Of a stretch of DNA of 64,000 nt, positions 25,969-50,995 are shown in pieces. How positions within the stretch are numbered: position 1 is the stretch's first letter; each line of letters begins with the position of its first letter. The notes under the pieces were generated by a model that searched no databases, was not told where the DNA came from, and saw only the letters and a list, made by a program, of their open reading frames with translations. The position numbers and the translations under genes were made by a program. The DNA is taken from contig CAYQXR010000001.1 in the NCBI GenBank assembly GCA_964421625.1, positions 40,756 through 104,755 on the forward strand, given 5' to 3'. The stretch comes from an uncultured Gemmatimonadaceae bacterium. GTDB lineage: Bacteria; Gemmatimonadota; Gemmatimonadetes; Gemmatimonadales; GWC2-71-9.

Positions 25969-26760
25969 TCAGAAGTCCTTGCGCTGCAGGGCGCGGCGCG
26001 CGAACAGGATGGGACCGACGGTCCAGACGAGCAGGAGCGTTCCGACGCCGGCCTGACCGACGCGGGTTCCCAGCACGTCCTGGACGACGGCACCGGTGTA
26101 GCCGAGCATGATGGAGGCCTCGGATCCCAGCAGGAGGAGCACGCGCCCGAGATCGAAGGGGTTTGCCGCCAGCAGGGCGAGCAGGGCGCTCTCGATCGGC
26201 CGGGGCCCAGCCAGCATCGCGCCGAGCAGGAGCAGGCCGTCCCAGAGCACGCTGCCGACCAGCCAGACCACCAGGGCGGTGGTCAGCGCCCGGACTCGGT
26301 CGTCGACCCGCAGGGCAATCAGGAAGGCCAGGGCCAGCGAGGTCATGGTGAGCACCACCGTCATGCCGACCAGTCCCAGCAGTCGGCCCAGCATCGGGCC
26401 GACGAGCATGCCGTGCCAGGCGAAGGGTGCCAGGATCCCGACCACCAGGGCAGTGGCAAGCGGCAGCACGGCTCCGACATACTGGGCCACGAAGAGCTGG
26501 CTGCGGGCAATGGGCTGGGCCAGGAGCAGTTCGGTCATCTCCCGCCCGTGGTGTACCTGGAGCGTGCCGACCACCAGTCCCGCCAGCGGGGTCACGATCA
26601 GCGCCACATCGAGGAGCGAGACCAGAGTGGTCGGCCCGCCGCCGCCGAAGCGGAGCAGCAGTTCGCCGCCGACGGCCAGTCCCGCCGCCAGCAGCAGCAG
26701 CCAGCGGGAGCGCCAGGCGTCCCGCAGCGACATGCCCAGGAGTACGCGCAGGGTGGTCAT
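25969..26760 (-). CDS. nosY: nitrous-oxide reductase maturation ABC permease NosY
   Basis: Six-TM ABC-2 type permease. It is coupled (4-nt overlap) to nosF within the nos cluster. Confidence 0.85.
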   Translation of the reverse strand: MTTLRVLLGMSLRDAWRSRWLLLLAAGLAVGGELLLRFGGGGPTTLVSLLDVALIVTPLAGLVVGTLQVHHGREMTELLLAQPIARSQLFVAQYVGAVLPLATALVVGILAPFAWHGMLVGPMLGRLLGLVGMTVVLTMTSLALAFLIALRVDDRVRALTTALVVWLVGSVLWDGLLLLGAMLAGPRPIESALLALLAANPFDLGRVLLLLGSEASIMLGYTGAVVQDVLGTRVGQAGVGTLLLVWTVGPILFARRALQRKDF

Positions 26761-27476
26761 GCGACCGCCCGACGGATGCCACCGCCCAGCAACTGGACCA
26801 GGGCCCGCTCCAGCGTGGGTTCACCGGTGCGGGCGCGCAGAGCGGTCAGCTCGCCGGACCAGGCTGCCACGCCCTGCGAGAGAAACAGGACCTCATCGGC
26901 CAGTTCCTCCAGCTCGGGCAGGATATGCGAGGTGATCAGGATGGTCGTCCCCCGGCGCCGTTCGGCGTGCAGTCGGTCCTTGAGCACCCGGGCCGCCACC
27001 GGATCGAGCCCAGCCGTCGGCTCGTCGAGCAGCAGGAGCTTGGGCCTGAAGGCCAGGGCGAGCACGGCGTTGACCTTCTGTCGGGTGCCGCCGGACAGCG
27101 TACCGAAAGGGCGATCAAAGGCCTCGCCCAGATCGAAGGCCTCAGCCAGGGAGAGATCGGGTGTGGCACCGCCGCGCAGCCGGGTCAGCACGCCGAGCAG
27201 GTCGCGCCCGCTCAGATGCGGCGGGAAGTGCGCGATCTGCGACATGTACCCGATGGTCATCCGGCAATCCGACCGCTCCTGCGGCGAGACCCCGTCGATG
27301 GTGATCCGCCCTTGGTCGGGACGCGCCAGATCCAGCAGCAGCTTGATCAGCGTGGTCTTGCCGGCGCCATTCGGACCCACCAGGGCGGTGATCCGCCCGC
27401 CGGACAGCTTGGCGTCGAAGCCGGTGAGCACCGCGAGACGGCCGAAGCGCTTGTGGACCCCGTGAAAGTGGATCAT
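26757..27476 (-). CDS. nosF: nitrous-oxide reductase maturation ABC ATPase NosF
   Basis: Walker A GPNGAGKTT, signature LSGGTRQK and Walker B LLLLDEP. It overlaps both nosD and nosY. Confidence 0.88.
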   Translation of the reverse strand: MIHFHGVHKRFGRLAVLTGFDAKLSGGRITALVGPNGAGKTTLIKLLLDLARPDQGRITIDGVSPQERSDCRMTIGYMSQIAHFPPHLSGRDLLGVLTRLRGGATPDLSLAEAFDLGEAFDRPFGTLSGGTRQKVNAVLALAFRPKLLLLDEPTAGLDPVAARVLKDRLHAERRRGTTILITSHILPELEELADEVLFLSQGVAAWSGELTALRARTGEPTLERALVQLLGGGIRRAVA

Positions 27477-28720
27477 GGCATCAGTCCGGTCGGCGGCCGC
27501 AGCAGCGGCGTGGCATCGATGACGGCTGTCGGCGTCAGCACGGGGAGCACCCGTTCCGCCGCGTCGAGCAGCCGGACGAACAGGGTGCGGTGCAGCAGGA
27601 GGATGGCGGGCACCCGTTCCCCCAGCACCGCGAAGAGCCGGATCGGCCGGTGCGGCACGTCGCCCAGGCCATCGTGGTTGAGGTCCCAGCCGCGGTAGCT
27701 ATCCCACCAGTTGGCTTCGAAGTGCGGCGCGCCGATCCGGCCGTTGACGGCGACATCGAAGACATTGGCCTGGAAGACATTGCCCCGGAAGTCGGCATCG
27801 CTGGTGCTGGCCAGCACCCGCACCGCCCAGCCGTTGCTGACGAACTGGTTGTCGCGCACCTGCAACCGGTCGGCGCCGTCCGCCAGCAGGGCCGTGGTGT
27901 TGCTGGCGAAGCGGTTGCCGGTGAGGCGCACATCGGCGATGTCCTTGAGCAGCAGGCCGTGCGCCGTGGTGCCGCGGTTCTCCTCGAAGCGGTTGCCCCG
28001 CATGAGCACCTGCCGCGAGTACATCACGGCCACGCCGCTGCCGTTGGCCCGGAAGACATTGGCCTCGTAGTCGGAGGAGTCGGCATACATGAAGTGCAGG
28101 CCGTAGCGGATGTTCCGTTCGCTGTGGTTGTCGCGGACGGTCGCGTGCCGGGTGAACTCGAGGTAGATGCCGTCGCGGTGCCCGGTGATCCGGTTGCCGT
28201 CGATCGCCAGATGGCGTGAACCCCAGGCGTGAATCGCATTGCCGGTGCCCGACTCGATGCCGGGCGTTCCGGCGATGGTGTTGCGCCGCACGGCGCAGTC
28301 GACCACATCCGTCAGGTAGATGGCGAAGAAGGTGTCGTCGAACCGGTTGTCGGCCACGGTGCAGCGGGTGGCGCCGTCGAGGTGCAGCGCAGCGCGATCC
28401 TGATGATGCGACCGACCGGTGTGGCGGAAGGTGAGGCCCTGGATGGTGACGTCGGATGCGGTCACCCGGAGCAGTTCCCGCTGTCCCTCGCCGTCGAGGA
28501 TGGCCCCCGGCGCCCCGACGAGCACCAGCGATCGATCGATCACCACCACGGGGCCGCGGTGGACGCCGGCGGGCACCACCACGGTGTCCCCGGCGCGGGC
28601 AGCCGCCACAGCGGTGGCCAGATCGAACGGCGCGCCCTGGGGGACTGCGGCCAGGCTCAGCGCGGCGTGGGCCATCACCAGGAACAGCATCTCAGGACCC
28701 TCCGCCCCGGCTGAAGGCAT
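27473..28720 (-). CDS. nosD: nitrous-oxide reductase maturation protein NosD (parallel beta-helix)
   Basis: Periodic beta-helix repeats (NRFDDTFFAIYL, NTIAGTPG...GNAIH, NRITGHRDGIYLE, NHSERNIRYGLHFMY, NVFRANGSGVAVMY, NRFEENRG...). An alternative start is the ATG at 28690. Confidence 0.9.
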   Translation of the reverse strand: MPSAGAEGPEMLFLVMAHAALSLAAVPQGAPFDLATAVAAARAGDTVVVPAGVHRGPVVVIDRSLVLVGAPGAILDGEGQRELLRVTASDVTIQGLTFRHTGRSHHQDRAALHLDGATRCTVADNRFDDTFFAIYLTDVVDCAVRRNTIAGTPGIESGTGNAIHAWGSRHLAIDGNRITGHRDGIYLEFTRHATVRDNHSERNIRYGLHFMYADSSDYEANVFRANGSGVAVMYSRQVLMRGNRFEENRGTTAHGLLLKDIADVRLTGNRFASNTTALLADGADRLQVRDNQFVSNGWAVRVLASTSDADFRGNVFQANVFDVAVNGRIGAPHFEANWWDSYRGWDLNHDGLGDVPHRPIRLFAVLGERVPAILLLHRTLFVRLLDAAERVLPVLTPTAVIDATPLLRPPTGLMP

Positions 28721-29147
28721 CCCGTGCCTTCACGGCTGCCACCACGTCATCCCAGGTCAGGACCTGGCCGTCCCAGGCGGTGGTGGCGTGCGACGCAGCT
28801 ACCGCGATGATGCCCAGGCCCATGGGTGAGGTGCCCTCGGTCATCTGGTGGAAGCGGAGATCCGCCAGCGGCAGCAGGGTGCCGGGGGCCACGGCATCGG
28901 TGCCCCAGAGCGAGCGGGGGGGCTCCTGGGTTGCCAGCCAGGCGGCCAGACATTCCAGCGAGTCGAACCGCACGGTCCGCCCGGCCGACGTAATGGCCGC
29001 CGCCCCGAACCGGCGGTCGGAGAGCGTCATGCGGCAGTGCTCGCAGGCGTCGCGGTCCCAGGTGATCGACGGGGTCCCGTCGGCACAGCCGGTCAGGTGG
29101 ACCACCGCCACGCCCCCGAGCAGGAGCAGCAGTTCGCGACGGTTCAC
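28692..29147 (-). CDS. nosL: copper chaperone lipoprotein NosL
   Basis: GTG at 29147 overlaps the upstream stop (GTGA). Lipobox HLTGC, and the NosL motif DACEHCRMTLSDRRFGAAAI. Confidence 0.8.
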   Translation of the reverse strand: MNRRELLLLLGGVAVVHLTGCADGTPSITWDRDACEHCRMTLSDRRFGAAAITSAGRTVRFDSLECLAAWLATQEPPRSLWGTDAVAPGTLLPLADLRFHQMTEGTSPMGLGIIAVAASHATTAWDGQVLTWDDVVAAVKARDAFSRGGGS

Positions 29148-29728
29148 GCCGCCACTCCCCGCGGGCGGCTGACGTACCACGCGGCCGCTGCCAGGCCGAA
29201 GGCCAGTCCCAGGGCCAGCGCACCGAGGCCCGGCCAGGCCATGGCCACGAAGTTGAGCAACTGCTTGCTGCCGATCAGCGGCGGTTGATAGGTCATCCCC
29301 GGCACGATGATGATCGCGTTCTCCATGTCGAGGTTGTGGCCGTAGTCGTACTCCCAGCGCCAGAAGTCCACCAGGCCGACCACGCCCAGCAGGGCGAAGC
29401 CGACCAGCCAGCCGGTGAGCATCCGCCGGGTGCCCCGCCAGGCAATGGCGAAGGCGGCGAGCGAGAGGGCGCCGATCACCCACGGCATGATCCGCAGTTC
29501 GGGAATCGCGTCGGGGGTGATCGGCTTCATCCCGATGTAGTGGTTGAGGCCGTTGATGTTCTGCAGGTCATTCGGCTTGATGCCGGTGACCTTGGAGGCC
29601 CAGATCTGGAGTCCGAGCCCCTCAGGGTACTGTGGTGCACCCAGGCGCACCTCCCACAGCGGGAACAGGAGTGCCGGCAGGACCAGCACCGCAGCGACTG
29701 CGAGCAGGAAGCGCGCCCTGGTGGTCAT
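29144..29728 (-). CDS. nos-cluster integral membrane protein (NosB-like, clade II)
   Basis: 194 aa with about 4 TM segments. It lies immediately downstream of nosZ (2-nt gap), the position occupied by nosB in clade-II clusters. Assignment is by context only. Confidence 0.5.
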   Translation of the reverse strand: MTTRARFLLAVAAVLVLPALLFPLWEVRLGAPQYPEGLGLQIWASKVTGIKPNDLQNINGLNHYIGMKPITPDAIPELRIMPWVIGALSLAAFAIAWRGTRRMLTGWLVGFALLGVVGLVDFWRWEYDYGHNLDMENAIIIVPGMTYQPPLIGSKQLLNFVAMAWPGLGALALGLAFGLAAAAWYVSRPRGVAA

Positions 29729-29729: not shown

Positions 29730-31766
29730 TCAGCGCTCCCCGTCCTTGCCGTGCTGGTGCACGGCCGGGGCCGCCGACGGATTCACGTACTTGCCAGCCC
29801 GGTCCTGCTGGGTGGCCGCGCGGTCACTGACTGCGAAGGTGATCGGCGTGTTGCTGCCGCGCGCCCCGACCCGGACATACCCCTGCATCTCCTGGTGCAG
29901 CGCGCTGCAGAAGTCGGTGCAGTAGAACGGGTACACGCCGGGCTGGGTCGGCACCCAGGTGATGGTCCGGGTCTCGCCGGGCTGCAGGATCAACTCGGCG
30001 GTGTTCATGCCGAGCACCGCGAAGCCATGGAGAATGTCCCAGTCCTGTTCGACGTTGGTGACATGCCAGTAGACGGTGTCGCCCACTTCGATGCCGTTGA
30101 TCACGTCGGGCGCGAAGTGCGAGCGGATGGCCATCATCTTCACGTGGACGTTCTTGCCGCGCCGTTCCACGCCCGCTTCGGCCGCCGCCCGCACCACCCA
30201 CGGATGCTTGTTGTCGGCCAGCGAGAAGAACTTGATCTGCTTGTCCTTGATCAGACTGGCCGGCAGGGCCTGGGCGTAGTGCGGCTCTCCCATGGTCGGG
30301 AAGTCGAGCAGGAGCTGCATCTTCTCGCCGCTGATGTCGATCAACTGCGCCGCGTGGGCCAGCTCACCGCCGGTGGGGAGGTAGCGGTCCTTGGTGATCT
30401 TGTTCATGGCCACCAGGTACTTGCCCCAGGGCTTCACGCCGTCGCCGCCGGGGATCATCAGGTGACCCACCGAGTAGTAGACCGGGATCCGGTCGACGAT
30501 CTCCCAGGTGCCCAGCTTCCACTTCACCACTTCGGACGAGATGAACATGGTGGTGTAGGCGTTGCCCTTGCCGTCGAACTCGGTGTGCAGCGGGCCCAGG
30601 CCCGGCTTGTCGACTTCCCCTGCAATGGTGGACTCGTACTTCAGGATCGGCGAGCCGTCGAGTTCCCCGTCGAAGTCCTTGGCTTCGATGGCCTTGATCA
30701 TCTTCGAGAACGAATGCACCGGGATCAGCGAGGCGAGCTTGCCGCCGCCGACGATGTATTCGCCGCTGGGATCCACGTCGACGCCATGCGGCGACTTGGG
30801 GGTCGGCAGGAAGTACAGCATGCCCGGGCAGTCCTTCGGGACCAGCATCTTCACGGAGGTCCGCATCTCGCTGCGGGCGGTCCGGGTGGCCGGGTCCACA
30901 TGGTTGTGGGCATAGCGGGCCGGGGCGGTCTTCGCCTTGCCGTCCGCCACGCACTTCTCGGCCAGCTTCCAGTTGATCGCCGCGATGTAGTCCTTGTCGT
31001 TCTTCGAGGCGTTCAGTTCCAGCTTGGTATAGGCCAGCTCGGAGTTGTAGCTGGTGAAGAAGAACCAGCCTTCCGACACGGCCTTGCCGGCCCGGCCGAG
31101 GTCGTAGTTGTACCCGGGCATCAGAACCTGGAAGGCGACCTCCATCTTGCCGGGTTCATTCGCCTTCACGAACGACACCGAGCCCTTGAAGTTGCTGGCG
31201 TAGGTCTCGATCGGTACGTCAGCGTTGGGGATCGGCACCGAGAAGCGCACCGCCGAGACCACGTACTCCGAGTTCGGAGTGACGAAGGGCGAGGCGTGCC
31301 CGCCGGCCGAATGCGGGATCTCGATGATCTCGTCGGTCTCGAAGGTGGTCAGGTCGATCCGGGCAATCCGCGGCGTGTTGTTGCCGTTGATGAAGAGCCA
31401 GCGCCCGTCCGGCATGCCGGCCGTCTGCGAGAGCTGCGGATGATGGGTGTCGTCCCACGGCACGAAGCCGTAGGAGGTCTCCAGCATCGGCTTGGTCTCC
31501 TCGTTGTAGCCCCAGCCGTTCTCGGGGTGCTGCGAGAAGACGGGCACCGTCTTGATGAGCCGGCCCGACGGCAGCCCGTACACGGTGATCTGGCCGCTGA
31601 AGCCGCCCGACTTGAAGGAGTAGAACTCGTCGTGCTCGCCCGGTGCGACGTAGACCCGCTGGGCGGCGTCGCCGCTCAGGAGCTGCTGGGGCGACCCCGA
31701 GTTGCACCCGCTCAGCGCCGCCGCAGCGACAAGGAGCGGAAGGGTGATGAACGGTCGATGACGCAT
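29730..31766 (-). CDS. nosZ: nitrous-oxide reductase NosZ, Sec/lipoprotein-type (clade II)
   Basis: The N-terminus MRHRPFITLPLLVAAAALSGC has a lipobox and no twin-arginine. CuZ-region motif WDDTHHP. The C-terminal CuA site is FYCTDFCSALHQEMQGY, followed by a ~45-aa tail without CxxCH. Confidence 0.95.
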   Translation of the reverse strand: MRHRPFITLPLLVAAAALSGCNSGSPQQLLSGDAAQRVYVAPGEHDEFYSFKSGGFSGQITVYGLPSGRLIKTVPVFSQHPENGWGYNEETKPMLETSYGFVPWDDTHHPQLSQTAGMPDGRWLFINGNNTPRIARIDLTTFETDEIIEIPHSAGGHASPFVTPNSEYVVSAVRFSVPIPNADVPIETYASNFKGSVSFVKANEPGKMEVAFQVLMPGYNYDLGRAGKAVSEGWFFFTSYNSELAYTKLELNASKNDKDYIAAINWKLAEKCVADGKAKTAPARYAHNHVDPATRTARSEMRTSVKMLVPKDCPGMLYFLPTPKSPHGVDVDPSGEYIVGGGKLASLIPVHSFSKMIKAIEAKDFDGELDGSPILKYESTIAGEVDKPGLGPLHTEFDGKGNAYTTMFISSEVVKWKLGTWEIVDRIPVYYSVGHLMIPGGDGVKPWGKYLVAMNKITKDRYLPTGGELAHAAQLIDISGEKMQLLLDFPTMGEPHYAQALPASLIKDKQIKFFSLADNKHPWVVRAAAEAGVERRGKNVHVKMMAIRSHFAPDVINGIEVGDTVYWHVTNVEQDWDILHGFAVLGMNTAELILQPGETRTITWVPTQPGVYPFYCTDFCSALHQEMQGYVRVGARGSNTPITFAVSDRAATQQDRAGKYVNPSAAPAVHQHGKDGER

Positions 31767-31861
31767 GCCTGCCTCTTCCGATGGGGTCCCGAGGGACCGG
31801 TCTCTGCCAACCGCAGTTACGGTGGCACAGAGGAAGAGTCGTGCAGATGGCGGGGGGGCGC

Positions 31862-31877
31862 CGTGACGGTTGTCACA
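31862..31877. promoter_or_regulatory. Crp/Fnr-type box CGTGAC-GGTT-GTCACA upstream of nosZ
   Basis: It matches 11/12 arm positions of the perfect palindrome at 33195..33210. Its centre lies about 103 nt upstream of the nosZ ATG. Confidence 0.55.
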
Positions 31878-31918
31878 CGGGGGTTTTGAGGTGCTGCGGG
31901 GCGGCTGGACCGGTGGTG

Positions 31919-32356
31919 CTACTGCCGATTCCCGGCGCCGGCCGCACGGATTCGGGGGCGCAGTGCCAACACGCCAGCCAGCAGGCCCAGCACCTGGAGC
32001 AGGCCACCGGTCACGGTGGCGAGGCGCCAGCCCAGCGCGGGGTGCGTGGCGGTGACGATCTCACCGACCCCCCGGAGCGTGGTGCCTGCCGACAGGCACC
32101 ACCAGGCCATCTCGCCGTGCCAGGCGCGGACCCGGGGGTCGTCGGCCCGCGGCCGTGGGAACAGCCAGATGGCCGTGCCGAGGATGACGTGGAGCACGCT
32201 GCCAGCCAGCAGCAGGTGTGCATGGGCGCTGATGAGATGCGGGGCCGGCCACTGGTGGAGCAGGTCACGACGGACCAGCATCCAGAGACCGAGCCCCAGA
32301 CCCCAGACGAGAAAGACGAGTGCCGCAGCGAAAAAGCGTCGGGAGAGCGCCGACAC
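31919..32356 (-). CDS. 4-TM membrane protein resembling heme-copper oxidase subunit I helices X-XII (paralogue B)
   Basis: The GTG start abuts the stop of the upstream paralogue. HAHLLLAGSVLHVILGTAIWLFPR aligns with HIHMLTLGFVTMMIAGVAYHVFPR of the neighbouring gene. Confidence 0.6.
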   Translation of the reverse strand: MSALSRRFFAAALVFLVWGLGLGLWMLVRRDLLHQWPAPHLISAHAHLLLAGSVLHVILGTAIWLFPRPRADDPRVRAWHGEMAWWCLSAGTTLRGVGEIVTATHPALGWRLATVTGGLLQVLGLLAGVLALRPRIRAAGAGNRQ

Positions 32357-32815
32357 TCAGCGCCCGCCCGGCTCCACGGTCGGCATCGGACGCAGCGGCG
32401 GCAGCCGGTTCGGCAGCACTGCGGCCTTGTCCAGCGTCCGCCAGAGGTTCCAGGCCAGGCAGTAAGCCCCCGCCACGGAGCAGAGCGCCCCGGCGGCCAG
32501 CAGGGCTCTCGTGGCGCTGCCGCCGTTGGCCCGCACCGCGAACCCGGTTGCCAGCAGCGCCAACCCCACGTTGGCCAGCACCAGATGAATCCGGGCCAGG
32601 TTGCGCGAGTGCAGCGGCGTGGCGGCGAACCGCGGGAACACATGGTACGCCACCCCCGCAATCATCATGGTGACGAAGCCGAGCGTCAGCATGTGGATGT
32701 GGACGGTGCGGTAGATGATGAAGGCGGGGAAGGTCGCCATCGTGAGCCCGAGCGTCACCCCGGCTACCAGCCAGCAGAGCGAGGCCCGCAGAAAGCCCAG
32801 GACGTGCGTTTCCAC
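32357..32815 (-). CDS. 4-TM membrane protein resembling heme-copper oxidase subunit I helices X-XII (paralogue A)
   Basis: VHIHMLTLGFVTMMIAGVAYHVFPRF...LARIHLVLANVGLA is compared with COX1 [26 protein letters not shown]...WAKIHFAIMFVGVN (recalled from memory). There are four predicted TM helices. Confidence 0.6.
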   Translation of the reverse strand: METHVLGFLRASLCWLVAGVTLGLTMATFPAFIIYRTVHIHMLTLGFVTMMIAGVAYHVFPRFAATPLHSRNLARIHLVLANVGLALLATGFAVRANGGSATRALLAAGALCSVAGAYCLAWNLWRTLDKAAVLPNRLPPLRPMPTVEPGGR

Positions 32816-32816
32816 C

Positions 32817-33137
32817 TCAGCACCCGGCGCAGCAGGCGTTGACCAGCGACACCTCGATCACCAGACCGAGGTCGCCCGCACTCACCGCATGCGGTGCGTC
32901 CGGTTCGAGCTGCACGAAATCGCCTTCGACCAGCGGGCGCTCCTCGTCGCCGCAGGTGAGGCGTCCGGCGCCCTGACGGACCCGGATCGAGACGCGCGAG
33001 GGGTTGCGGTGGGTGGGGAGGGACTGGCCCGGCAGGAAGGTCAGAATCGAGACGCGCCCGGCGATGGGATCCTCGGTCACCTGGACGGAGGGACGCTCGG
33101 GGCGCGGCATGGCGCAGGCGGGGGCTTCAGTAGACAT
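32817..33137 (-). CDS. cupin domain protein with C-terminal Cys-rich tail
   Basis: 106 aa with a cupin-like core (LPGQSLPTHRNPSRVSIRVRQGAGRL...GDFVQLEPDAPHAV). It ends in NACCAGC. It lies 1 nt upstream of the first 4-TM gene. Confidence 0.65.
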   Translation of the reverse strand: MSTEAPACAMPRPERPSVQVTEDPIAGRVSILTFLPGQSLPTHRNPSRVSIRVRQGAGRLTCGDEERPLVEGDFVQLEPDAPHAVSAGDLGLVIEVSLVNACCAGC

Positions 33138-33194
33138 GCGGAGAGACTCCGGTTCAAGGAGCTGAAGAGATCACCTCCCGGCCACCGCCGCGTC

Positions 33195-33210
33195 TGTGAC
33201 GCTTGTCACA
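33195..33210. promoter_or_regulatory. perfect Crp-type palindrome TGTGAC-GCTT-GTCACA
   Basis: It sits in the divergent region between the cupin operon (ATG 33137) and the Crp/Fnr gene, and overlaps that gene's first candidate start codon (GTG 33196). Confidence 0.65.
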
Positions 33211-33936
33211 CTCCCCGACGGGCCCGATATTGGGGGCGTGTCCTCCCTGGTCCCGATCCTCCGCGGCCTGCCGTTCTTTGCCGGTGTGCGCGACGCCACG
33301 CTCGAGCGCCTCGCGGCCCGCTGCATTCCCCGTGAAGTGGGTGAAGGCTTCCCGCTGTTCCGCGCGGGCGACCCCTGCGGCGGTCTGTACCTGGTGCTGC
33401 ATGGCCGGGTGCGCATCTACCGCACCGCCCCCGACGGACGGGAACAGACGCTGGCCGTCGAGGGCCCCGGTCGTCCGGTGGCCGAGCTGCCGCTGTTCGA
33501 CGGCGGTCCCTATCCGGCCTCGGCGGTGACCGTCATCCCCTCACGCCTGGCCTTCCTGCCGCGCGCCGAGTTCACTCACGCCTTCCGGACCGAACCCGAG
33601 GTCGCCATGGCCGTGGTCACCGCCCTCGGCGCGCGCCTGCGGCACCTGGTGCAACTGATCGAGACGGTGGCCTTCCGCGATGTCGCGGCCCGGCTCGCCA
33701 TGCACCTGGCGGAGTATGCCGAGCAGCACGGCACCGTGCAGGGCGATGTGGTGGTGCTGGAACTCGATCGGACCCAGGATCAGCTCGCCACCGAGATCGG
33801 CACGGCCCGGGAATCGGTCTCGCGGGCGCTCAAACAGTTGCGGGCCGCCGGCCTGATCCGGGCCCGCAGTGGGCATCGGCTGACCGTGGCCCCCCCGGCG
33901 TACCTCCGGGCCTGGGCCCGCGGTGAACCTCACTGA
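33196..33936 (+). CDS. Crp/Fnr family transcriptional regulator
   Basis: cNMP-binding-like domain (ILRGLPFFAGV...GGLYLVLHGRVRIY) and a C-terminal HTH (QDQLATEIGTARESVSRALKQLRAAGLI). There is no N-terminal Cys cluster. An alternative start is GTG 33238. Confidence 0.88.
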   Translation: MTLVTLPDGPDIGGVSSLVPILRGLPFFAGVRDATLERLAARCIPREVGEGFPLFRAGDPCGGLYLVLHGRVRIYRTAPDGREQTLAVEGPGRPVAELPLFDGGPYPASAVTVIPSRLAFLPRAEFTHAFRTEPEVAMAVVTALGARLRHLVQLIETVAFRDVAARLAMHLAEYAEQHGTVQGDVVVLELDRTQDQLATEIGTARESVSRALKQLRAAGLIRARSGHRLTVAPPAYLRAWARGEPH

Positions 33937-33949
33937 GACTTGCGTCACA
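33934..33949. promoter_or_regulatory. Crp/Fnr-type box TGAGAC-TTGC-GTCACA upstream of DUF2249 gene
   Basis: 11/12 arm positions match the palindrome. It overlaps the crp stop codon. Its centre is about 74 nt upstream of ATG 34016. Confidence 0.5.
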
Positions 33950-34015
33950 GTGGCGCGGTCAGGTCGGTGCGATCTTGAGGCCATGGCCGTCTCGCCCTGC
34001 CACCACGGATTCCCG

Positions 34016-34516
34016 ATGCACCCCTCTTTTGATCCCAACACGATTGTCGATCTCGATGTCCGCGCCACGCTGCGGGCCGGCCAGGAGCCGCTCCCGCAGA
34101 TCCTGGCCGCGGTGCGGGACCTGCCGCCCGATGGCGTGCTCCACCTGCGGACCTCGTTCATTCCGGCACCCCTGCTGACCCTGCTCGCGCAGCAGGGCTT
34201 CCAGCACCATACCGAGGCCTTCGCCGACAGCGACTGCTCAACCTGGTTCTGGCGCGGCGCCACACCGGACCGGCCGCCACCACCGGCCGAACCGGGCATC
34301 CCGGTGGTGGAGGACGTCACCGACCTCCGCCTGCTGCCGCCGCCCCAACCCATGCTCTGGATCGTGGAGCGACTGGAACAGGGCATCGACGCGCTGGAGG
34401 TGTATCTGCCCTTCTACCCCGAACCGCTCCTGCCGGTCCTGGCGCGATACAACTACGGTCTGGAACTGGTGCAGCAGGGGAGCGACGGGGTCCACGTGCG
34501 GATCGCGCGGCGCTGA
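34016..34516 (+). CDS. tandem DUF2249 domain protein
   Basis: Two DUF2249-like modules: LDVRATLRAGQEPLPQILAAVRDLPPDGVLHLRTSFIPAPLL, and DLRLLPPPQPMLWIVERLEQGIDALEVYLPFYPEPLLPVL. Alternative starts are 33983 and 33923. Confidence 0.65.
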   Translation: MHPSFDPNTIVDLDVRATLRAGQEPLPQILAAVRDLPPDGVLHLRTSFIPAPLLTLLAQQGFQHHTEAFADSDCSTWFWRGATPDRPPPPAEPGIPVVEDVTDLRLLPPPQPMLWIVERLEQGIDALEVYLPFYPEPLLPVLARYNYGLELVQQGSDGVHVRIARR

Positions 34517-36933: not shown

Positions 36934-37734
36934 TCAGAGGCCCGTGGGGTGGTCGTGAAAACTCCAGGGCAGATCGTAGCGCTCGCCCACGAGTTCGGCG
37001 AGGGCCCGCACGCCGACGGTCTCGGTGGCGTAGTGCCCGGCGTAGTAGACATTGACGCCGTACTCGAGCGCGTCGAATGTGGTGTGGTGCGCTCCCTCGC
37101 CGGTGATGAAGGTGTCGAGCCCTGCGGCGGCTGCCGCGGCGATGCGGTCGCCTGCGCTGCCGGTGATGATGCCCACGCGGGTGACGGTCTCCGGGCCACC
37201 GGGAATGAGATGCACGCTGCCACCGAGCAATTCGGTGAGACGATTCGCCAGCGCATCGCGCGACATGATCAGATGGCCGGCTGCGCCGAACGGAATGCCC
37301 TGCCACTGATCGAAGGGCGCCGGGTCGAGCAGCCCGAGCATCCGGGCCAGCACGACATTGTTGCCGACCTCCGGGTGGACATCAAGCGGAATGTGCGCCG
37401 AGTAGACTGCGATGTCGTGACGGAGGAGGGCATGGAGCCGCCGGTAGCGGCGGTCCGTGACGGGACGATTGCCGTCCCAGAACAGACCGTGATGCACCAG
37501 CAGGAGCGTGCCGGGCGGCGAGGTTTCGATCACCCGATCGATGGTGCGCTGCGAGGCGTCGACCGCCCCAACGATGGCAGTGACCGGCAGGCGATGTTCG
37601 ACCTGCAAGCCGTTCACCGCATTGGGTGCGTCGGGGAGTTCGCGGATCTGCAGGTAGTCGTCGAGCCAGGTGGTGATTTCGAGCAGGCTCGGGCCCGACA
37701 TGTCGACCATGAGATCGTCGTGCACGTGATCCAT
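36934..37734 (-). CDS. Nif3-like dinuclear metal centre protein (YbgI/GTP cyclohydrolase 1 type 2 family)
   Basis: ATG at 37734 overlaps the parB stop (ATGA). Motifs NGLQVE, LLLVHHGLFW and FITGEGAHHT. Confidence 0.85.
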   Translation of the reverse strand: MDHVHDDLMVDMSGPSLLEITTWLDDYLQIRELPDAPNAVNGLQVEHRLPVTAIVGAVDASQRTIDRVIETSPPGTLLLVHHGLFWDGNRPVTDRRYRRLHALLRHDIAVYSAHIPLDVHPEVGNNVVLARMLGLLDPAPFDQWQGIPFGAAGHLIMSRDALANRLTELLGGSVHLIPGGPETVTRVGIITGSAGDRIAAAAAAGLDTFITGEGAHHTTFDALEYGVNVYYAGHYATETVGVRALAELVGERYDLPWSFHDHPTGL

Positions 37735-38639
37735 CAGCCGTCGAAGGGGTGGCCGAGCAGGATTTCCAGCAGACGGGCCAGATCGTCGGAGGAGTAGTAG
37801 GCCAGCGCGAGCGTGCCGCGGCCACGGCGCTTGGCCGTCAGGCGGACGTCGGTGCCGAGCCGCTGGCGGAGCACTTCCTCGATGCGGCGCGCGTCGGCGG
37901 TCACCTGGCGCGGCGCGGCCTTCTTCATCATCGATCCGCGCGGCTTGGCGGCGTCGTCGCCGCGAACGCGTGCCTCGGTTTCGCGTACCGACCATCCCTC
38001 GGCTACCGCGGTGGTGGCCATCCGGGTGATGGCGGCCGGATGCGGCAGCGCCAGCAGCGCGCGGGCATGGCCACCGGACAGCGAGCCGGCCTGCATCATC
38101 ACCTGCACCTCGGCGGGCAACTTCAGCAGCCGCAACATGTTGGCGACGGTTGACCGATCTTTGCCCACCAGCCGCGCCACCTCGGCGGGCGAGAGCTGGA
38201 ACTCGTCCTGCATGCGCTGATACCCGGCGGCCTCATCCAGCGGCGTGAGGTCGTCGCGCTGCAGGTTCTCGATCATTGCGAGGGTGAGCGCGGTGCGGTC
38301 ATCGAACTCGCGGACCACGGCAGTCACGGTGGCCCAGCCGAGACGCTGCACGGCGCGCCAGCGGCGTTCGCCGGCCACCAGTTGCCAGCGACCCTCGTCC
38401 ATCGGTCGGACCACGATGGGCTGCAACAGGCCCGAGGCCTCGATCGAGGCGGTGAGTTCGGTCAGCGCGTCGTCGTCGAAGACACGGCGGGGCTGCCAGG
38501 GATTGGCGGTGATGGCGCTGAGGGGAATTTCGCGCAGCGCCTCGCCGGGCTCGGCTGTCGGCTCGCGGGAGATGGGCCCGAGCAGCGCCTCCAGGCCGCG
38601 CCCCAGCCCGCGTCGGGACGTCGACTTGGACTGCGTCAT
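37734..38639 (-). CDS. parB: chromosome partitioning protein ParB
   Basis: ATG at 38639 overlaps the parA stop. Motifs [30 protein letters not shown], and the [27 protein letters not shown]. Confidence 0.95.
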
Positions 38640-39430
38640 CGGGCCCCCGGGTCGGCAGCGAGCGCCGCGGTCCGCTTCATCAGTTCCTGCGCCACGGCCA
38701 GATAGCTCTTGGCGCCCACCGACTGGAGGTCGTAGAGCAGAATCGGCTCGCCGAAGGAGGGGGCCTCGGCGAGGCGGATGTTCCTGGGGATCACGGTGCG
38801 GAACACCTTGGCCCCGAAGTAGTCGCGGGCCTCGGAGGCCACCTCGCGGGCGAGATTCAGCCGGGCATCGTACATGGTGAGCAGGACGCCATCGAGCTGG
38901 AAGTCGGGATTGAAGTTCTGCTGAACGAGCCGTATCGTGTTGATTAGCTGAGAGATACCCTCCAATGCATAGTATTCGCATTGAATGGGAATGATCACGG
39001 CATCGGCGCCGGCGAGGACGTTCAGGGTCACCATGCCCAGGGACGGTGGGCAGTCCACCAATACGTATTCATAGGATGACCGGACGGCATCGAGGGCGCG
39101 GCGGAGGACCGTCTCGCGGCGCTCCTTGCCGATCAGCTCGATCTCGGCGCCGACCAGATCCTGATTGGCGGGGACCACGTGCAGGTAGGGGAGCCGTTCG
39201 TGCTGGTGCACCACATCGGCCACTGGCACGCCGTCGACCAGGACGTCGTAGAGCGACCGGGGGGCGGTGTTCTTGTCGACGCCGACGCCGGAGGTGGCGT
39301 TGCCCTGCGGGTCCGCGTCGACCAGGAGCGTGCGCCGCTCCGCGATCGCCAGGGAGGCTGCGAGATTGACGGCGGTGGTCGTCTTGCCCACGCCGCCCTT
39401 CTGATTTGCGATCGCGATGATTCTGGCCAT
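38636..39430 (-). CDS. parA: chromosome partitioning ATPase ParA/Soj
   Basis: Deviant Walker [19 protein letters not shown], plus [11 protein letters not shown] and [10 protein letters not shown]. Confidence 0.95.
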
Positions 39431-39496
39431 GGCGGAAAGATACCGTGGGCCGGATGAGGACGGAAGGCGTCGGGGGTTGTGGTGGAGTTGTCGCCC

Positions 39497-39512
39497 TGTT
39501 CCACGTGAAACA
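39497..39512. promoter_or_regulatory. parS site (TGTTCCACGTGAAACA)
   Basis: 15/16 match to the parS consensus TGTTTCACGTGAAACA, in the parA-mnmG intergenic region. Confidence 0.85.
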
Positions 39513-39543
39513 AGCAGGGGTGTCGCCTGGGCCGCCGGTTGGC

Positions 39544-39559
39544 CGTTTCACGTGAAACA
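39544..39559. promoter_or_regulatory. parS site (CGTTTCACGTGAAACA)
   Basis: 15/16 match to the parS consensus, 47 nt from the first site. Confidence 0.85.
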
Positions 39560-39579
39560 GCCTGGCGCCGACCGGGGAG

Positions 39580-41433
39580 CTACTTCCTGGACCCCTGCGT
39601 CAGCAGCACCAGCAGGTCGGCCGGGGACACGCCGGGAATCCGCCCGGCCTGTCCCAGCGTTCCGGGGCGGATCCGACTGAGCTTCTCGCGCGACTCCCAG
39701 GAGAGCGCCGTCATTTCCTGGTAGGGGAGGTCGTCCGGCAGTCGCATCGCCTCCTGTTCCGCCATCCGCGCCGCCTGCTCCCGCTCCCGCGCGAGATATC
39801 CGGCGTACTGCAGTTCTATGCCGGCCCACTCCGCGTCCTCCGATGCCACCGTAATCCCTGCCGCCTCGAATAGATCGTTCAGCGCCAATCCCGGACGCTT
39901 GACGACTTCGCTGATGCGGGTCGGCTCGGGCAGTGGCGTGCTCCCGGCCCGCTCCAGCAGGGCCGCCGCCTGTTCCGGCGACACCACGGCGGCGCGAGCC
40001 AGGTCGAGCGCGGCGTCTTCCCGGGCCAGTTGGGCCTCGGACGCGGCGCGCTCCTCCTCGCTCCAGAGGCCGAGCCGGAGGGCCAGCGGGGCCAGGCGGC
40101 GCAGCGCGTTCTCCTGCCGCAGCAGCAACCGGAACTCGGCGCGGGAGGTGAACAAACGGTACGGTTCGTCGACGCCGCGGGTGACCAGATCGTCGACCAG
40201 TACCCCGATGTAGCCCTCGTCGCGGGCAATGGTGACCGGTTCCAGCTCCAGCGCCAGCGCGGCGGCGTTCAGGCCGGCCAGTGCTCCCTGCCCCGCCGCC
40301 TCCTCGTAGCCGGTGGTCCCGTTGATCTGTCCCGCCGTGAACAGGCCGGGCACGCCCCGCACTGCCAGATGGGCGTCGAGCTGCGTGGGCGGGAGATAGT
40401 CGTACTCGATGGCGTACCCGGGACGGGTCATGGCCACCTGCTCCAGGCCCGGCACCAGCCGCAGCATCTCTTCCTGGATGGCCGGGGGCAGCGAGGTCGA
40501 GAGCCCCGCCACGTACAGCTCCTCGGTGTCCAGCCCCTCGGGTTCCAGAAATACCTGGTGCCTGGGCGCGTCGGGGAACTTGACGATCTTGTCTTCCACC
40601 GAGGGGCAGTAGCGCGGCCCGCGGCCAGCGATTGCCCCGCCGTACAGGGCGCTCTCCGCCAGGTGCTCCCGGATGAAGGCCTTCACCGGTTCGCCGGCCC
40701 AGGTCAGCCAGCACGAGCGCTGGTCGGGTCGGGCCGCCCGGACATGGTTGGAGAACCAGTAGGGGCCCGGGTCGCTGTCCTGGGGTTCCATGCCCAGTCG
40801 GTCGACCGTCCGCCCGTCGACCCTCGGCGGCGTGCCCGTCTTGAAGCGTTCGACGGTAAGTCCAAGATCTGCAAGGTGTTGCGACAGCTCGACGGAGGGT
40901 GGTTCACCGGCTCGGCCCGCCGCAATGGTGGTCGAGGTGCCGACGTGGATCGCGCCCCGCAGGAAGGTCCCCGTGGTCACCACCACGGCGCGGGCAGCGA
41001 TCCGGCGGCCATCGGTGGTGATCACCCCCGTCACTCGATCGCCGGTCAGCAGAAAGCGCGCGGCCGATCCCTGCACCAGGCGGATCGGGTGGCGCACCGG
41101 GAGGGTGTCGAGCAGGTGGCGCACGGCGGTGCGGTACAGCGTGCGGTCGCACTGGGCCCGAGGGGAGGCTACCGCCGGTCCCTTGCTCGCGTTGAGCATG
41201 CGGAACTGGATCATCGCCCGGTCGGTGGCTCGGCCCATGATCCCCCCGAGGGCATCGACCTCGCGGACCACGGTGCCCTTGGCGATGCCGCCGATCGCCG
41301 GATTGCACGACATCATCCCGATGGTGTCGAGCTGCTGGGTCAGCAGCGTCACGCGCGCGCCGCGCCGCGCCGCCAGGGCCGCGGCCTCGACGCCGGCGTG
41401 GCCGCCACCCAGGATGAGCACGTCGGTCTGCAT
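39580..41433 (-). CDS. mnmG: tRNA uridine 5-carboxymethylaminomethyl modification enzyme MnmG (GidA)
   Basis: DVLILGGGHAGVEAA FAD fold, plus MSCNPAIGGIAKG, TGTFL, GPRYCPSIE-like GPRYCPSVEDK and GQINGTTGYEEAA. Confidence 0.96.
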   Translation of the reverse strand: MQTDVLILGGGHAGVEAAALAARRGARVTLLTQQLDTIGMMSCNPAIGGIAKGTVVREVDALGGIMGRATDRAMIQFRMLNASKGPAVASPRAQCDRTLYRTAVRHLLDTLPVRHPIRLVQGSAARFLLTGDRVTGVITTDGRRIAARAVVVTTGTFLRGAIHVGTSTTIAAGRAGEPPSVELSQHLADLGLTVERFKTGTPPRVDGRTVDRLGMEPQDSDPGPYWFSNHVRAARPDQRSCWLTWAGEPVKAFIREHLAESALYGGAIAGRGPRYCPSVEDKIVKFPDAPRHQVFLEPEGLDTEELYVAGLSTSLPPAIQEEMLRLVPGLEQVAMTRPGYAIEYDYLPPTQLDAHLAVRGVPGLFTAGQINGTTGYEEAAGQGALAGLNAAALALELEPVTIARDEGYIGVLVDDLVTRGVDEPYRLFTSRAEFRLLLRQENALRRLAPLALRLGLWSEEERAASEAQLAREDAALDLARAAVVSPEQAAALLERAGSTPLPEPTRISEVVKRPGLALNDLFEAAGITVASEDAEWAGIELQYAGYLAREREQAARMAEQEAMRLPDDLPYQEMTALSWESREKLSRIRPGTLGQAGRIPGVSPADLLVLLTQGSRK

Positions 41434-41471: not shown

Positions 41472-42973
41472 CGTGTTGAGCACCAGTGATAATGTCCCCT
41501 CGGGACACCATTAGAACTGTCCCCTAGCTTCGGGCCTCCTTGAGCGGAGGCCCGGGTGGATCGGACAGCGATGAGTACTCGAGAGGTGGGCCGCGCTGCG
41601 GTGCTGCAGCGCGTGGTGGCGGGGGACCTGTCCTTGACGGCGGCGGTGCCGCTGTTGGCGGTGAGCTATCGGCAGGCCAAGCGGCTGCTCCAGCGGTTCC
41701 GGGGCGGGGGGGCGCGAGCGCTGGTGCATCGGAGTGTGGGGCAGGCCTCGAATCGGGCGCGCCCGTCGGGGCAGCGGGCGGCGGTGCTGGCGCTGGTGCG
41801 CGCGCACTACAGCGGCCCGGCCGAGCGGGGCCCGGGGCAGCGGTTCGGCCCGACGCTGACGGCCGAGCATCTGCGAGCGGACCATGGGGTGGGGGTGTCG
41901 GTGACGACGCTGACGCGGTGGATGCGAGCCGAGGGCCTGTGGGGGCGTCGGCGGCGGGGCAGCCCGCGCCCCCAGCGGCGGGTGCGCAAGCCGCATTTCG
42001 GCGAGCTGGTGCAGCTCGACGGGAGCTTCCACGACTGGTTCGAGGGGCGAGGGCCCCGGGCGTGCATGATGACGATGGTGGATGACGCGACCGGACAGAC
42101 CCTGCTGCGGGTCGGGGCCGAAGAGACGACCTGGGCGGCGGCAGACATCCTGCAAGCGTGGATCGCGGCCTACGGCGTGCCGTTGGCCCTCTACGTGGAC
42201 CGGAAGAGCGTCTACCTGCGGGCCCCCACGGCGCACGAGGCGGCGTGCGGGGTGGCACCGGTGACGCAGTTTGGTCGGATGTGCCAGAAGCTGGGGATCC
42301 AGGTGATCGGGGCGGGGAGTCCCCAAGCGAAGGGGCGGGTGGAGCGCGGCCACGGGACCCATCAGGACCGGTTGATCAAGAAGCTCCGGCTGCAGGGCAT
42401 CGCCGACGTGGCCACGGCGAACGCCTACCTGGCCGAGACCTACCTGCCGGCCCACAACGCCCGCTTCGCGGTGCCGCCCGCGGCGCCCGCGGACTATCAC
42501 CGGCCCCGGGAGCCGGCATGGGCGGATGCGGACGTCTTCTGCCTGGAGACGCCGCGGGTGGTCGGGGCGGACTTCGTGGTGCAATACCATCGGCAGGGCT
42601 TGCAGTTGGACCGGAGCAGTCGGGGGCGGGTCCCGGCGAAGAGTCGGGTCGTGGTGCGTGAGCTCCAGGATGGGACGCTGCGGCTCATCCACCAGCCGGT
42701 CGGGGGCCGGGAGCGGGTGGTGGGATGGACCCCCGCCGCCCCGCGCCTCCCCAAGCCCGCAGCGCCCGCCCCGCCGCCCCCCGAGCGCCCGGTGGCGCGT
42801 CCAAGCCCCGAGCACCCGTGGCGCCACCAACATCGCCGCTGGCAGGCCGAGGCCTGCGCGGCACGGGACCGTCGGACCGTCGCGGGATGAGCCCGGATCG
42901 GTCTGCACCCGCACCCCAAGGGGACAGTTCTACTGGTGGAACACAGGGGACATTTCTATTGGTGGTTGACACG
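41472..42973 (+). mobile_element. complete ISNCY-family insertion sequence (1502 bp)
   Basis: Imperfect ~55-bp terminal inverted repeats at 41472..41527 and 42918..42973, each carrying two TGTCCCCT motifs. They are flanked by the 12-bp direct repeat GGGGGGCCTCGA (41460..41471 and 42974..42985). The element holds a single transposase ORF. Confidence 0.85.
41556..42890 (+). CDS. ISNCY family transposase (HTH + DDE/integrase core)
   Basis: The N-terminal HTH (REVGRAAVLQRVVAGDLSLTAAVPLLAVSYRQAKRLLQRFRGGGARALVHRSVGQASNRA) is typical of ISNCY transposases. The catalytic core includes VQLDGSFHDWF...YVDRKSVY...QAKGRVER. Confidence 0.85.
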   Translation: MDRTAMSTREVGRAAVLQRVVAGDLSLTAAVPLLAVSYRQAKRLLQRFRGGGARALVHRSVGQASNRARPSGQRAAVLALVRAHYSGPAERGPGQRFGPTLTAEHLRADHGVGVSVTTLTRWMRAEGLWGRRRRGSPRPQRRVRKPHFGELVQLDGSFHDWFEGRGPRACMMTMVDDATGQTLLRVGAEETTWAAADILQAWIAAYGVPLALYVDRKSVYLRAPTAHEAACGVAPVTQFGRMCQKLGIQVIGAGSPQAKGRVERGHGTHQDRLIKKLRLQGIADVATANAYLAETYLPAHNARFAVPPAAPADYHRPREPAWADADVFCLETPRVVGADFVVQYHRQGLQLDRSSRGRVPAKSRVVVRELQDGTLRLIHQPVGGRERVVGWTPAAPRLPKPAAPAPPPPERPVARPSPEHPWRHQHRRWQAEACAARDRRTVAG

Positions 42974-48097: not shown

Positions 48098-48176
48098 GGG
48101 TGGGATCTGGAGGATCACGGGATCACCAATGACCGACCCCTGACTGTCGCAGTGTGCAACGTTCTGGGGTCGGTGC

Positions 48177-48202
48177 GGTAATTTGGTGGGGGGTTGTCCG
48201 TC
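48177..48202 (+). promoter_or_regulatory. candidate ECF-type promoter GGTAAT-N16-CGTC (copy 1)
   Basis: An AT-containing -35-like element and a CGTC -10-like element at ECF spacing. It is conserved base for base with 50996..51021 and lies upstream of the HExxH lipoprotein gene. Confidence 0.4.
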
Positions 48203-48273
48203 ATATATGGGTGTAGAGCATGCAGTCCGGGTGCGACTCACCTTCTTGGGGCCATCTCTGGCCGACGGAGATC

Positions 48274-48790: not shown

Positions 48791-48833
48791 GCCGATGCAC
48801 GCAGAGCCCTCTCGACTTCTCCTGGAGGACCAC

Positions 48834-49409: not shown

Positions 49410-49466
49410 GGGAGCTGGGATCGTGCGTCGGTTGCGCCAGAGTCGGCTCCTCCGCATGAGGACCAC

Positions 49467-50042: not shown

Positions 50043-50056
50043 GGGAGGGGGTTGCT

Positions 50057-50955: not shown

Positions 50956-50995
50956 CCCCTGGCTGTCGCAGCGTGCGACCTTCCGGGATCGGTGC

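Follow-up and report, generated by a model that had tools for sequence, protein, structure and literature searches.

We analysed a 64,000-nt stretch of DNA from an uncultured member of the Gemmatimonadales (contig CAYQXR010000001.1; the whole stretch is hereafter called the window), in which three 16-bp boxes of the TGTGAC-N4-GTCACA type lie close to a gene encoding a Crp/Fnr-type regulator. According to our reading, to which we assign a probability of roughly 0.78, these boxes would be the binding sites of the adjacent regulator, which would use them for class II activation of the nitrous oxide (N2O) reductase gene nosZ, of an operon beginning with a cupin gene, and of a gene for a DUF2249 protein. 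All three boxes are intergenic and together span no more than 2.1 kb:

31862-31877, minus strand: box 1, CGTGACGGTTGTCACA (read on the nosZ strand, TGTGACAACCGTCACG), centre 31869.5, the predicted nosZ activator site; position weight matrix (PWM) score 29.5 bits, at the top of the range.
33195-33210, minus strand: box 2, TGTGACGCTTGTCACA, a perfect palindrome (read on the cupin strand, TGTGACAAGCGTCACA), centre 33202.5, the predicted activator site of the cupin operon; PWM score 28.2 bits.
33934-33949, plus strand: box 3, TGAGACTTGCGTCACA, centre 33941.5, the predicted activator site of the DUF2249 gene; PWM score 21.9 bits.

The first-pass annotation of this DNA had given the same coordinates and sequences for the boxes and had expected such 16-mers to be rare by chance. 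The counts agree with this expectation. With up to one mismatch to TGTGAC-N4-GTCACA, just these three matches occur in 64 kb, against 0.14 expected from 100 dinucleotide shuffles of the window (68% GC), and one shuffle out of the 100 reached three matches. The PWM scan of the window that the annotation had proposed, carried out with a matrix built from orthologous sites, returned the same three boxes and no other match of at least 12 bits, compared to 0.37 in random sequence. Relaxing the palindrome to two mismatches yielded background only, including a match at 3685, with no enrichment in the window; the looser TGTGA-N6-TCACA pattern with up to two mismatches was not enriched there either (12 matches against 16 expected).

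The boxes also stand where they had been placed in relation to the genes. The centre of box 1 lies 103.5 nt upstream of the nosZ ATG (31766), in agreement with the earlier figure of ~103 nt, and that of box 3 lies 41.5 nt before the ATG of the DUF2249 gene (33983), the TGA stop codon of the regulator gene forming the first three bases of the box. Box 2 was described as lying between the cupin operon and the divergent Crp/Fnr gene, overlapping the first candidate start codon of the latter. Its location and the overlap with GTG 33196 were confirmed, but this GTG was rejected as the regulator start on the basis of the ortholog lengths (231-232 aa) and of the alignment, in which the orthologs start at GTG 33238. 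Box 2 is located 28 nt upstream of the coding sequence that begins there.

Comparative evidence, namely adjacency of box and gene, occupancy of the target promoters and an invariant recognition helix, strongly supports what the annotation had put forward, a regulon of the adjacent Crp/Fnr protein with the boxes as its operators. We scanned one genome per species, which gave 80 Gemmatimonadota loci with regulator orthologs of 56-80% identity, ~1 Mb in total; the regulator homologs come from Gemmatimonadales and from Gemmatimonadetes metagenome-assembled genomes. These loci contain 108 boxes with up to one mismatch and 163 PWM matches, and only one of 111 boxes was found inside a gene. A box adjoins the regulator gene in all 80 loci, including 14 that seemed to be boxless and that carry two-mismatch variants, such as CGTGAC-N4-GTCACG, beside this gene. 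The sites recur where the window has them: in front of clade II nosZ, in the gap separating the cupin operon from the regulator gene, and just 3ʹ of the latter. A correctly oriented box is present upstream of nosZ in 20/23 cases, of cupin in 18/20, and of DUF2249 genes or operons in 52/52. The distance from the nosZ ATG to its oriented box in the orthologs is 103.5-136.5 nt, and that from the cupin ATG to the box centre is 51.5-78.5 nt, mostly 61.5-65.5 nt (18/20 loci). Within 250 nt past the regulator stop codon a box was found in 57 of the 80 loci, and each of the 57 was oriented downstream.

The term local regulon, used in the annotation, is appropriate for the window; it does not hold for Gemmatimonadaceae, where the boxes also precede an operon of an ApbC/Mrp-type Fe-S carrier (its last gene encoding a DUF1858-DUF2249 protein), a gene for a 102-aa SufT-like Fe-S assembly protein, a gene for a nitronate-monooxygenase-like (NMO) protein and one for TM450, a multi-pass membrane protein of ~450 aa with 12 transmembrane (TM) segments, and where nirK joins in some loci. 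In one such locus (L020), a putatively box-driven DUF2249 gene is followed directly by a gene for a Tat-signal multicopper protein resembling nirK. The orthologous locus of G. aurantiaca (L063) carries CGTGACAACAGTCACG. A metagenome scan with TGTGACAANCGTCACG returned at least 120 loci, mostly chance matches in unrelated low-GC organisms; among the matches listed, ~7 were Gemmatimonadota-like (NMO, SufT-like, nosZ plus cupin), and nothing was added to the regulon.

The promoter context of the sites was examined in an alignment of 110 unique sites, each read toward its downstream gene. The oriented consensus is TGTGAC-AAsC-GTCACr overall. The nosZ, cupin, SufT-like and NMO promoters have the form TGTGAC-AAsC-GTCACG, and the DUF2249, ApbC and TM450 promoters have the form TGAGAC-AwCC-GTCACA; the TGAGAC variant, to which box 3 belongs, is kept even in loci where it is not the stop codon. 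G4, A5, C6, T12, C13, A14 and C15 are each invariant (110/110). Outside the box, only A39 (98/110) and T43 (105/110) are conserved, which correspond to a -10 hexamer gAnnnT, and the flanks are uninformative. With T43 taken as -7, the predicted +1 falls on position 50 and the box centre on -41.5. This is the classical position of a class II activator. We found no -35 hexamer 16-18 nt from the conserved -10 of the target promoters; 21 nt separate the end of the proximal half-site from the -10. A distance of 40.5-42.5 nt between box centre and ATG is seen in many orthologous promoters of DUF2249, ApbC, NMO and TM450 genes, with exactly 41.5 nt in many loci, and implies leaderless mRNAs; where the distance is 56-64 nt, GGAGG occupies the gap. 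This suggests that leaderless mRNAs are common in Gemmatimonadota. All boxes point away from the regulator gene, 69/69 of those up to 200 nt upstream and 57/57 of those up to 250 nt downstream of it (126/126). We regard the boxes as directional class II promoter elements centred at -41.5 relative to predicted transcription start sites (TSS), rather than as symmetric operators. The corresponding elements predicted in the window are:

31835-31840, minus strand: nosZ -10 hexamer GACTCT, at the fixed distance from box 1 (A-11 and T-7 positions); predicted TSS ~31828.
31767-31828, minus strand: predicted 5ʹ untranslated region of nosZ, ~62 nt, with two conserved hairpins and a GAGG Shine-Dalgarno sequence.
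33168-33173, minus strand: -10 hexamer TGATCT of the cupin operon, at the fixed distance from box 2; predicted TSS ~33161, leader of ~24 nt with a GGAG Shine-Dalgarno sequence at 33147-33150.
33971-33976, plus strand: DUF2249 -10 hexamer GATCTT, at the fixed distance from box 3; the predicted +1 is the A of ATG 33983, giving a leaderless mRNA.
33203-33231, plus strand: predicted sigma-70-type promoter of the regulator gene, with -35 TTGTCA at 33203-33208 (inside box 2), a 17-nt spacer and -10 GATATT at 33226-33231.

The two domains of the regulator place it in the Crp/Fnr superfamily. The N-terminal cyclic nucleoside monophosphate (cNMP)-binding-type beta-barrel was matched by PF00027 (4.3e-22, 78.3 bits against a cutoff of 27.5) and the C-terminal Crp-type helix-turn-helix (HTH) by PF13545 (3.9e-15) and PF00325 (5e-5). 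A long helix joins the sensor to the HTH, and the protein aligns continuously with the CRPs of Mycobacterium tuberculosis (residues 7-210) and Escherichia coli (19-209). The closest solved structures by sequence are M. tuberculosis CRP (3d0s, E 7.9e-31) and GlxR (4byy, 3e-25); Pseudomonas aeruginosa DNR (3dkw) was matched at 4e-16. The recognition helix R-E-S-V-S-R noticed in the annotation is present as R191-E192-S-V-S-R196, and A-R-E-S-V-S-R is invariant in 79/79 readable loci. R191, E192 and R196 align with the DNA-contact residues R180, E181 and R185 of E. coli CRP, and the sites fit GTGAC-N4-GTCAC. Across the family, Arg180 and Glu181 correlate with G3 and A6 of the site, and a change of R180 to Ser or Pro switches a CRP-like TGTGA to an FNR-like TTGAC (PMC1274295). 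The boxes have G, not T, at the discriminating position, which fits this rule (PMC1274295) and the earlier view that they are of the CRP type and not of the FNR type. The FNR-type pattern TTGAT-N4-ATCAA with up to two mismatches had no match in the three box-bearing intergenic regions.

With respect to sensing, two candidates were rejected. An FNR-type [4Fe-4S] sensor can be dismissed by the lack of the Cys cluster, which the annotation had pointed out, and by failure against the NCBIfam Fnr model (16.8 bits, the cutoff being 228). Cys is absent from the N-terminus, MSSLVPILRGLPFF; C29 alone is invariant, and C48 is not conserved. A true cyclic AMP (cAMP)-dependent CRP is ruled out by the replaced contact residues and the model scores, as R82, S83, T127 and S128, which contact cAMP in E. 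coli CRP, correspond to P93, A94, L137 and V138, and the NCBIfam CRP equivalog gave 70.5 bits, well below its cutoff of 266. The regulator orthologs share the conserved motif ..GG.YPASA. The annotation had seen in the protein a combination of the CRP R-E pair with the FNR S-R pair. The helix does read R-E-S-V-S-R, but DnrT/DNR-like regulator with Arg at the CRP-180 position is a more fitting name for the protein than CRP/FNR hybrid; this placement is based on pairwise similarity only, with no curated subgroup model in the libraries used.

The best match to the regulator in the plasmid collection was the Crp/Fnr gene of Thermus thermophilus JL-18 plasmid pTTJL1801 (36% identity over 94%, pairwise E 4e-32), which lies 3ʹ of a GAF-domain gene, divergent from narCGH, and is dnrT by position (PMC5748679). 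DnrT, the CRP-like master activator of the nitrate-respiration element NCE, is the closest characterised relative that was found; it resembles the regulator in the sensor motif EGPGR...YPASA, which replaces the cAMP phosphate-binding Arg-Ser of CRP, and in having no FNR cysteines. It differs in the helix (P-E-A-V-S-R versus R-E-S-V-S-R here) and in the half-site (TTGAC versus GTGAC here), and the exchange of Pro for Arg at the CRP-180 position matches the T-to-G change of the half-site. The Thermus box TTGACC-N2-GGTCAT occurs upstream of drpA, upstream of a gene for a 383-aa membrane protein and in Pnrc, and has a common core with the Gemmatimonadales boxes, TGAC-N4-GTCA. DnrT has been footprinted on Pnrc and recruits RNA polymerase in vitro (PMC5748679). 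Moreover, DrpA and DrpB are absent in a dnrT mutant, and DnrT is described as an oxygen- and nitrate-insensitive, concentration-dependent activator (PMC6282519). By homology, these findings are the best experimental support for the view that the boxes belong to the regulator and that it acts as an activator. The two systems are not identical, however: DnrT is co-transcribed with the GAF protein DnrS, whereas no such partner is found beside the window regulator, and the Thermus regulon centres on nar and nrc, that of the window on clade II nosZ.

The Thermus element 3ʹ of nar contains drpA (DUF2249), drpB (DUF1858 and two DUF2249), and genes for a 144-aa protein, a protoglobin, the 383-aa protein and a metal-sulfur cluster assembly factor. 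Four of its products have relatives among the products of the Gemmatimonadota genes, TM152 and TM145 being the two small membrane proteins of the cupin operon:

Thermus DrpB: related to the DUF2249 protein of the window (tblastn E 2.4e-12).
Thermus locus L202, 3790-4224: the 144-aa protein, related to TM152/TM145 (tblastn E 2e-7).
Thermus locus L202, 5117-6268: the 383-aa protein, related to TM450 (tblastn E 4e-21).
Thermus metal-sulfur cluster assembly factor: related to the SufT-like protein (tblastn E ~2e-18).

The occurrence of relatives of TM152/TM145 and TM450 beside drpAB suggests a conserved, uncharacterised accessory set for N-oxide respiration. We also noticed that in L202 the palindrome ATGACCCAGGTCAT (5069-5082) is centred exactly 41.5 nt before the annotated start, 5117, of the 383-aa hypothetical membrane protein, so that the promoter of this gene has the same leaderless class II geometry as those in Gemmatimonadota. 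In publications on Thermus, this palindrome is attributed mainly to NsrR.

From these data we infer that the regulator binds the boxes and that binding activates. In the mechanism we propose, a regulator dimer would bind GTGAC-N4-GTCAC centred at -41.5, where the -35 hexamer is missing, and would recruit RNA polymerase to a weak -10, gAnnnT. It would in this way switch on nosZ with the downstream nos genes, by way of a structured leader of 62 nt, as well as the operon of the cupin and the two membrane proteins and the leaderless DUF2249 gene. Occupancy of box 2, together with polymerase at the back-to-back cupin promoter, would damp the synthesis of the regulator itself.

This last step concerns the regulator's own promoter, which in a consensus scan was the sole promoter-like match in 31700-34100 (0.0 expected). 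Its predicted +1 coincides with the GTG start at 33238, so that the regulator mRNA is predicted to be leaderless. Since the -35 lies within box 2, a bound protein would cover it; in addition, the predicted starts of the regulator and cupin transcripts are back-to-back, ~77 bp apart, and polymerase recruited to the cupin promoter would therefore clash with the regulator promoter. Negative autoregulation via box 2 is thus likely, as judged from this arrangement. The distance from the regulator start codon to the box centre is 34.5-37.5 nt in the lineage of the window and variable in Gemmatimonadaceae, and the geometry of autorepression is less secure outside the window, in Gemmatimonadaceae as well as in orthologs with a poorer -10.

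Several observations weigh against the proposed scheme. The scans for boxes covered the window and the ~1 Mb of orthologous loci, and a paralog with the same helix, or many more sites, may exist elsewhere. The 80 loci are phylogenetically related, so the counts obtained from them overstate the number of independent events. All promoter geometry in this organism is deduced from conservation, and it is not free of irregularities: the -10 consensus begins with G instead of T, the cupin promoter of the window has G at -11 (one of 12/110 exceptions), in several orthologs the -10-like hexamer of the regulator gene (TTGATT/TTCATT) has no A at position 2, and the spacer asymmetry (A7, A8) is not accounted for. 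In Thermus, the palindrome in the nic promoters has been ascribed to NsrR, and an electrophoretic mobility shift assay with DnrT failed (PMC5748679); the binding of DnrT to the box is consequently anchored by the footprint on one promoter. Finally, the signal is a guess from the content of the regulon. N2O reductase, Fe-S carrier, assembly or repair proteins, a DUF1858 (ScdA-like) domain and, in some genomes, nirK belong to it, which would point to nitrogen-oxide respiration or nitrosative stress, possibly together with O2 limitation. The regulator may use a cofactor, such as heme in the case of DNR, or it may be signal-blind and modulated by DUF2249 and the membrane proteins, as has been proposed for DnrT and DrpAB.

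We considered three other explanations of the boxes. They might be bound by another Crp/Fnr paralog encoded elsewhere, e.g. a global regulator, the adjacent gene being merely a target or a neighbour. The family is indeed large (3299 proteins at E<=1e-10), and motifs are known to be shared among paralogs whose helices are similar (PMC8510549). We nevertheless find this unlikely, as box and gene stay together in 80/80 loci even though the neighbours change between Gemmatimonadales and Gemmatimonadaceae, the recognition helix does not vary, and helix and half-site co-vary with those of Thermus DnrT (Pro-TTGAC, Arg-GTGAC). It is also quite improbable, in our opinion, that the regulator represses at all boxes until a signal relieves the repression, in the manner of NsrR. 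Such a role would be in line with the overlap between box 2 and the -35 of the regulator's own promoter, and the related Thermus palindrome was assigned to NsrR, the repressor of PnirS (PMC5748679). However, a repressor site needs no direction, whereas the strict orientation seen here, like the centre at -41.5, is a hallmark of class II activation. In the target promoters no -35 hexamer occurs 16-18 nt from the conserved -10, the proximal half-site ending 21 nt ahead of it, and DnrT is an activator that recruits RNA polymerase (PMC5748679).

Hardly any weight can be given to the idea that the palindromes are structural elements or chance occurrences with no role for a transcription factor, such as repeats or hairpins acting as terminators where the TM145 and regulator genes end. 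Boxes 1 and 3 do lie just past the 3ʹ ends of upstream genes, and a small hairpin can arise from a 6-bp palindrome with a 4-nt loop, but box 2 is not at a 3ʹ end, no terminator-like site was detected in 31700-34100, and no T-run follows the boxes. Conservation acts at the level of the bases (seven positions invariant in 110/110 sites) and not through compensatory changes, a -10 follows the box at a fixed distance, and the chance expectation is 0.14.

A broader interpretation, which we put forward tentatively and think possible but doubtful, is that the regulator, DUF2249 and the small membrane proteins form one ancient signalling module of N-oxide respiration in Deinococcota (DnrT, DrpA/DrpB) and Gemmatimonadota, with the Crp/Fnr protein itself being signal-blind. 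DUF2249 and the heme-copper-oxidase-like membrane proteins would then sense nitrate, NO or N2O and control the activity or the level of the regulator. Such a module would explain why the regulator gene is always sandwiched between the promoter of the cupin and membrane-protein genes and the DUF2249 promoter, and also why the cNMP pocket has lost its nucleotide contacts and why the regulator's own site occludes its promoter. The module may extend further, as is hinted by DUF2249 genes in the denitrification clusters of haloarchaea. If true, this interpretation would reveal the circuit, long sought, by which clade II N2O reductase is controlled in a phylum that is a major N2O sink in soil.

The preferred reading, class II activation by the adjacent regulator, can be compared with other known systems. 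The NO-responsive DNR/NNR/NnrR proteins of Proteobacteria are likewise Crp/Fnr superfamily members (DNR aligns over residues 15-212) without the FNR cluster; they activate denitrification genes including nosZ, as predicted here, and have N-oxide reductases and Fe-S repair in their regulons (PMC1274295). DNR and NnrR, however, use FNR-type TTGAT-N4-ATCAA boxes (PMC1274295), in contrast to the Arg at CRP-180 and the GTGAC box found here, and the host phylum and the nosZ clade differ as well. HcpR, which controls nitrosative-stress genes in Desulfovibrio, combines the CRP-like site wTGTGAnnnnnnTCACAw with Arg at position 180 (PMC1274295), and is thus a precedent for a CRP-type box in N-oxide regulation. 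Its regulon (hcp, frdX) is a different one, and in the sites described here C is invariant at position 6 (GTGAC) and the spacer is directional. The actinobacterial CRP/GlxR proteins (M. tuberculosis Rv3676, Corynebacterium glutamicum GlxR) come from GC-rich hosts and provide the closest solved structures by sequence. They recognise the CRP-type TGTGA-N6-TCACA. Unlike the present regulator, in which the phosphate-binding residues are replaced and the visible regulon is small and dedicated to N-oxides, they are cAMP-binding global regulators.

Organisms with clade II nosZ, such as Gemmatimonadota, are considered important sinks of N2O, a greenhouse gas. Our literature search found no publication that connects a transcriptional regulator with nosZ in Gemmatimonadota or Gemmatimonadetes. 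Control of denitrification genes by a Crp/Fnr activator at -41.5 is a textbook arrangement, and the mechanism as such is not surprising; the analysis is of value for annotation and for designing experiments. Its novelty consists in the putative assignment of a regulator, a site, a promoter architecture and a regulon to clade II nosZ in Gemmatimonadota, and in the link to the Thermus DnrT/Drp system. The circuit is testable: it names the regulator gene, defines a 16-bp site and its critical bases, and predicts transcription starts. The proposed regulon links N2O reductase with uncharacterised DUF2249, cupin, membrane and Fe-S assembly proteins, and the pairing of Pro with TTGAC in Thermus and of Arg with GTGAC here offers a natural example of co-evolution of recognition helix and half-site.

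The genes around the boxes in the window are:

25969-26760, minus strand: nosY (Pfam ABC2_membrane).
26757-27476, minus strand: nosF (Pfam ABC_tran).
27473-28720, minus strand: nosD (Pfam NosD).
29144-29728, minus strand: 194-aa open reading frame (ORF) g194, next after nosZ in the nos cluster.
29730-31766, minus strand: nosZ, first gene of the nos cluster, clade II (Sec-dependent) N2O reductase with a nos_propeller domain (TIGR04246, 932.9 bits against a cutoff of 625).
31919-32356, minus strand: TM145, 145-aa membrane protein (COX1, 0.0039, under the cutoff).
32357-32815, minus strand: TM152, 152-aa membrane protein (COX1, 3.8e-9, barely over the Pfam cutoff).
32817-33137, minus strand: cupin (Cupin_2, 3.2e-9), first gene of the cupin operon (31919-33137).
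33238-33936, plus strand: Crp/Fnr regulator, 232 aa (PF00027, PF13545).
33983-34516, plus strand: DUF2249 protein, 177 aa, with two DUF2249 stretches (PF10006, 1.3e-18), a relative of Thermus DrpB.

The order nosZ-g194-nosD-nosF-nosY is retained in orthologous loci, and g194, nosD, nosF and nosY are probably co-transcribed with nosZ. TM152 and TM145 show weak similarity to fragments of heme-copper oxidase subunit I.

In the nosZ leaders (the window and loci L002-L026), two hairpins are conserved across Gemmatimonadales with compensatory changes, 6 of the 14 predicted pairs covarying. The hairpin variant of the window is GGTCCCTCGGGACC, versus GGCCCCTCGGGGCC elsewhere, and the second hairpin lies ~10 nt before the GAGG Shine-Dalgarno sequence. 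An Rfam search of the window and the nosZ leader gave nothing at the gathering score, only a chance-level PhotoRC-I fragment. The hairpins could represent an element of mRNA stability or translational control of N2O reductase.

Some further features of the window were recorded. The two-mismatch CRP-like matches at 48737, 49670, 51557 and 53126 are copies of a duplicated coding repeat. At 48100-53210 there is a tandem array of five ~633-nt units, 79-87% identical, which encode paralogous proteins of ~190-220 aa without a Pfam match; it is located within a 2.82-kb segmental duplication, beside a gene for a sigma-70 region 4/HTH protein (50179-50955). The FNR-type pattern TTGAT-N4-ATCAA with up to two mismatches occurs 19 times in the window against 5.95 expected, an approximately threefold excess that was reached in 0/100 shuffles and is possibly caused by codon or GATC-related composition. 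Genes for NIF3, ParB, ParA and MnmG/GidA (36934-41433) lie directly beside the cluster of nos and regulator genes. Such a set is typical of the vicinity of a chromosomal replication origin. A 444-aa ORF at 41556-42890, which matches solely the transposase-like helix-turn-helix models HTH_28, HTH_32 and HTH_29, may encode an insertion-sequence transposase at the border of the conserved region.

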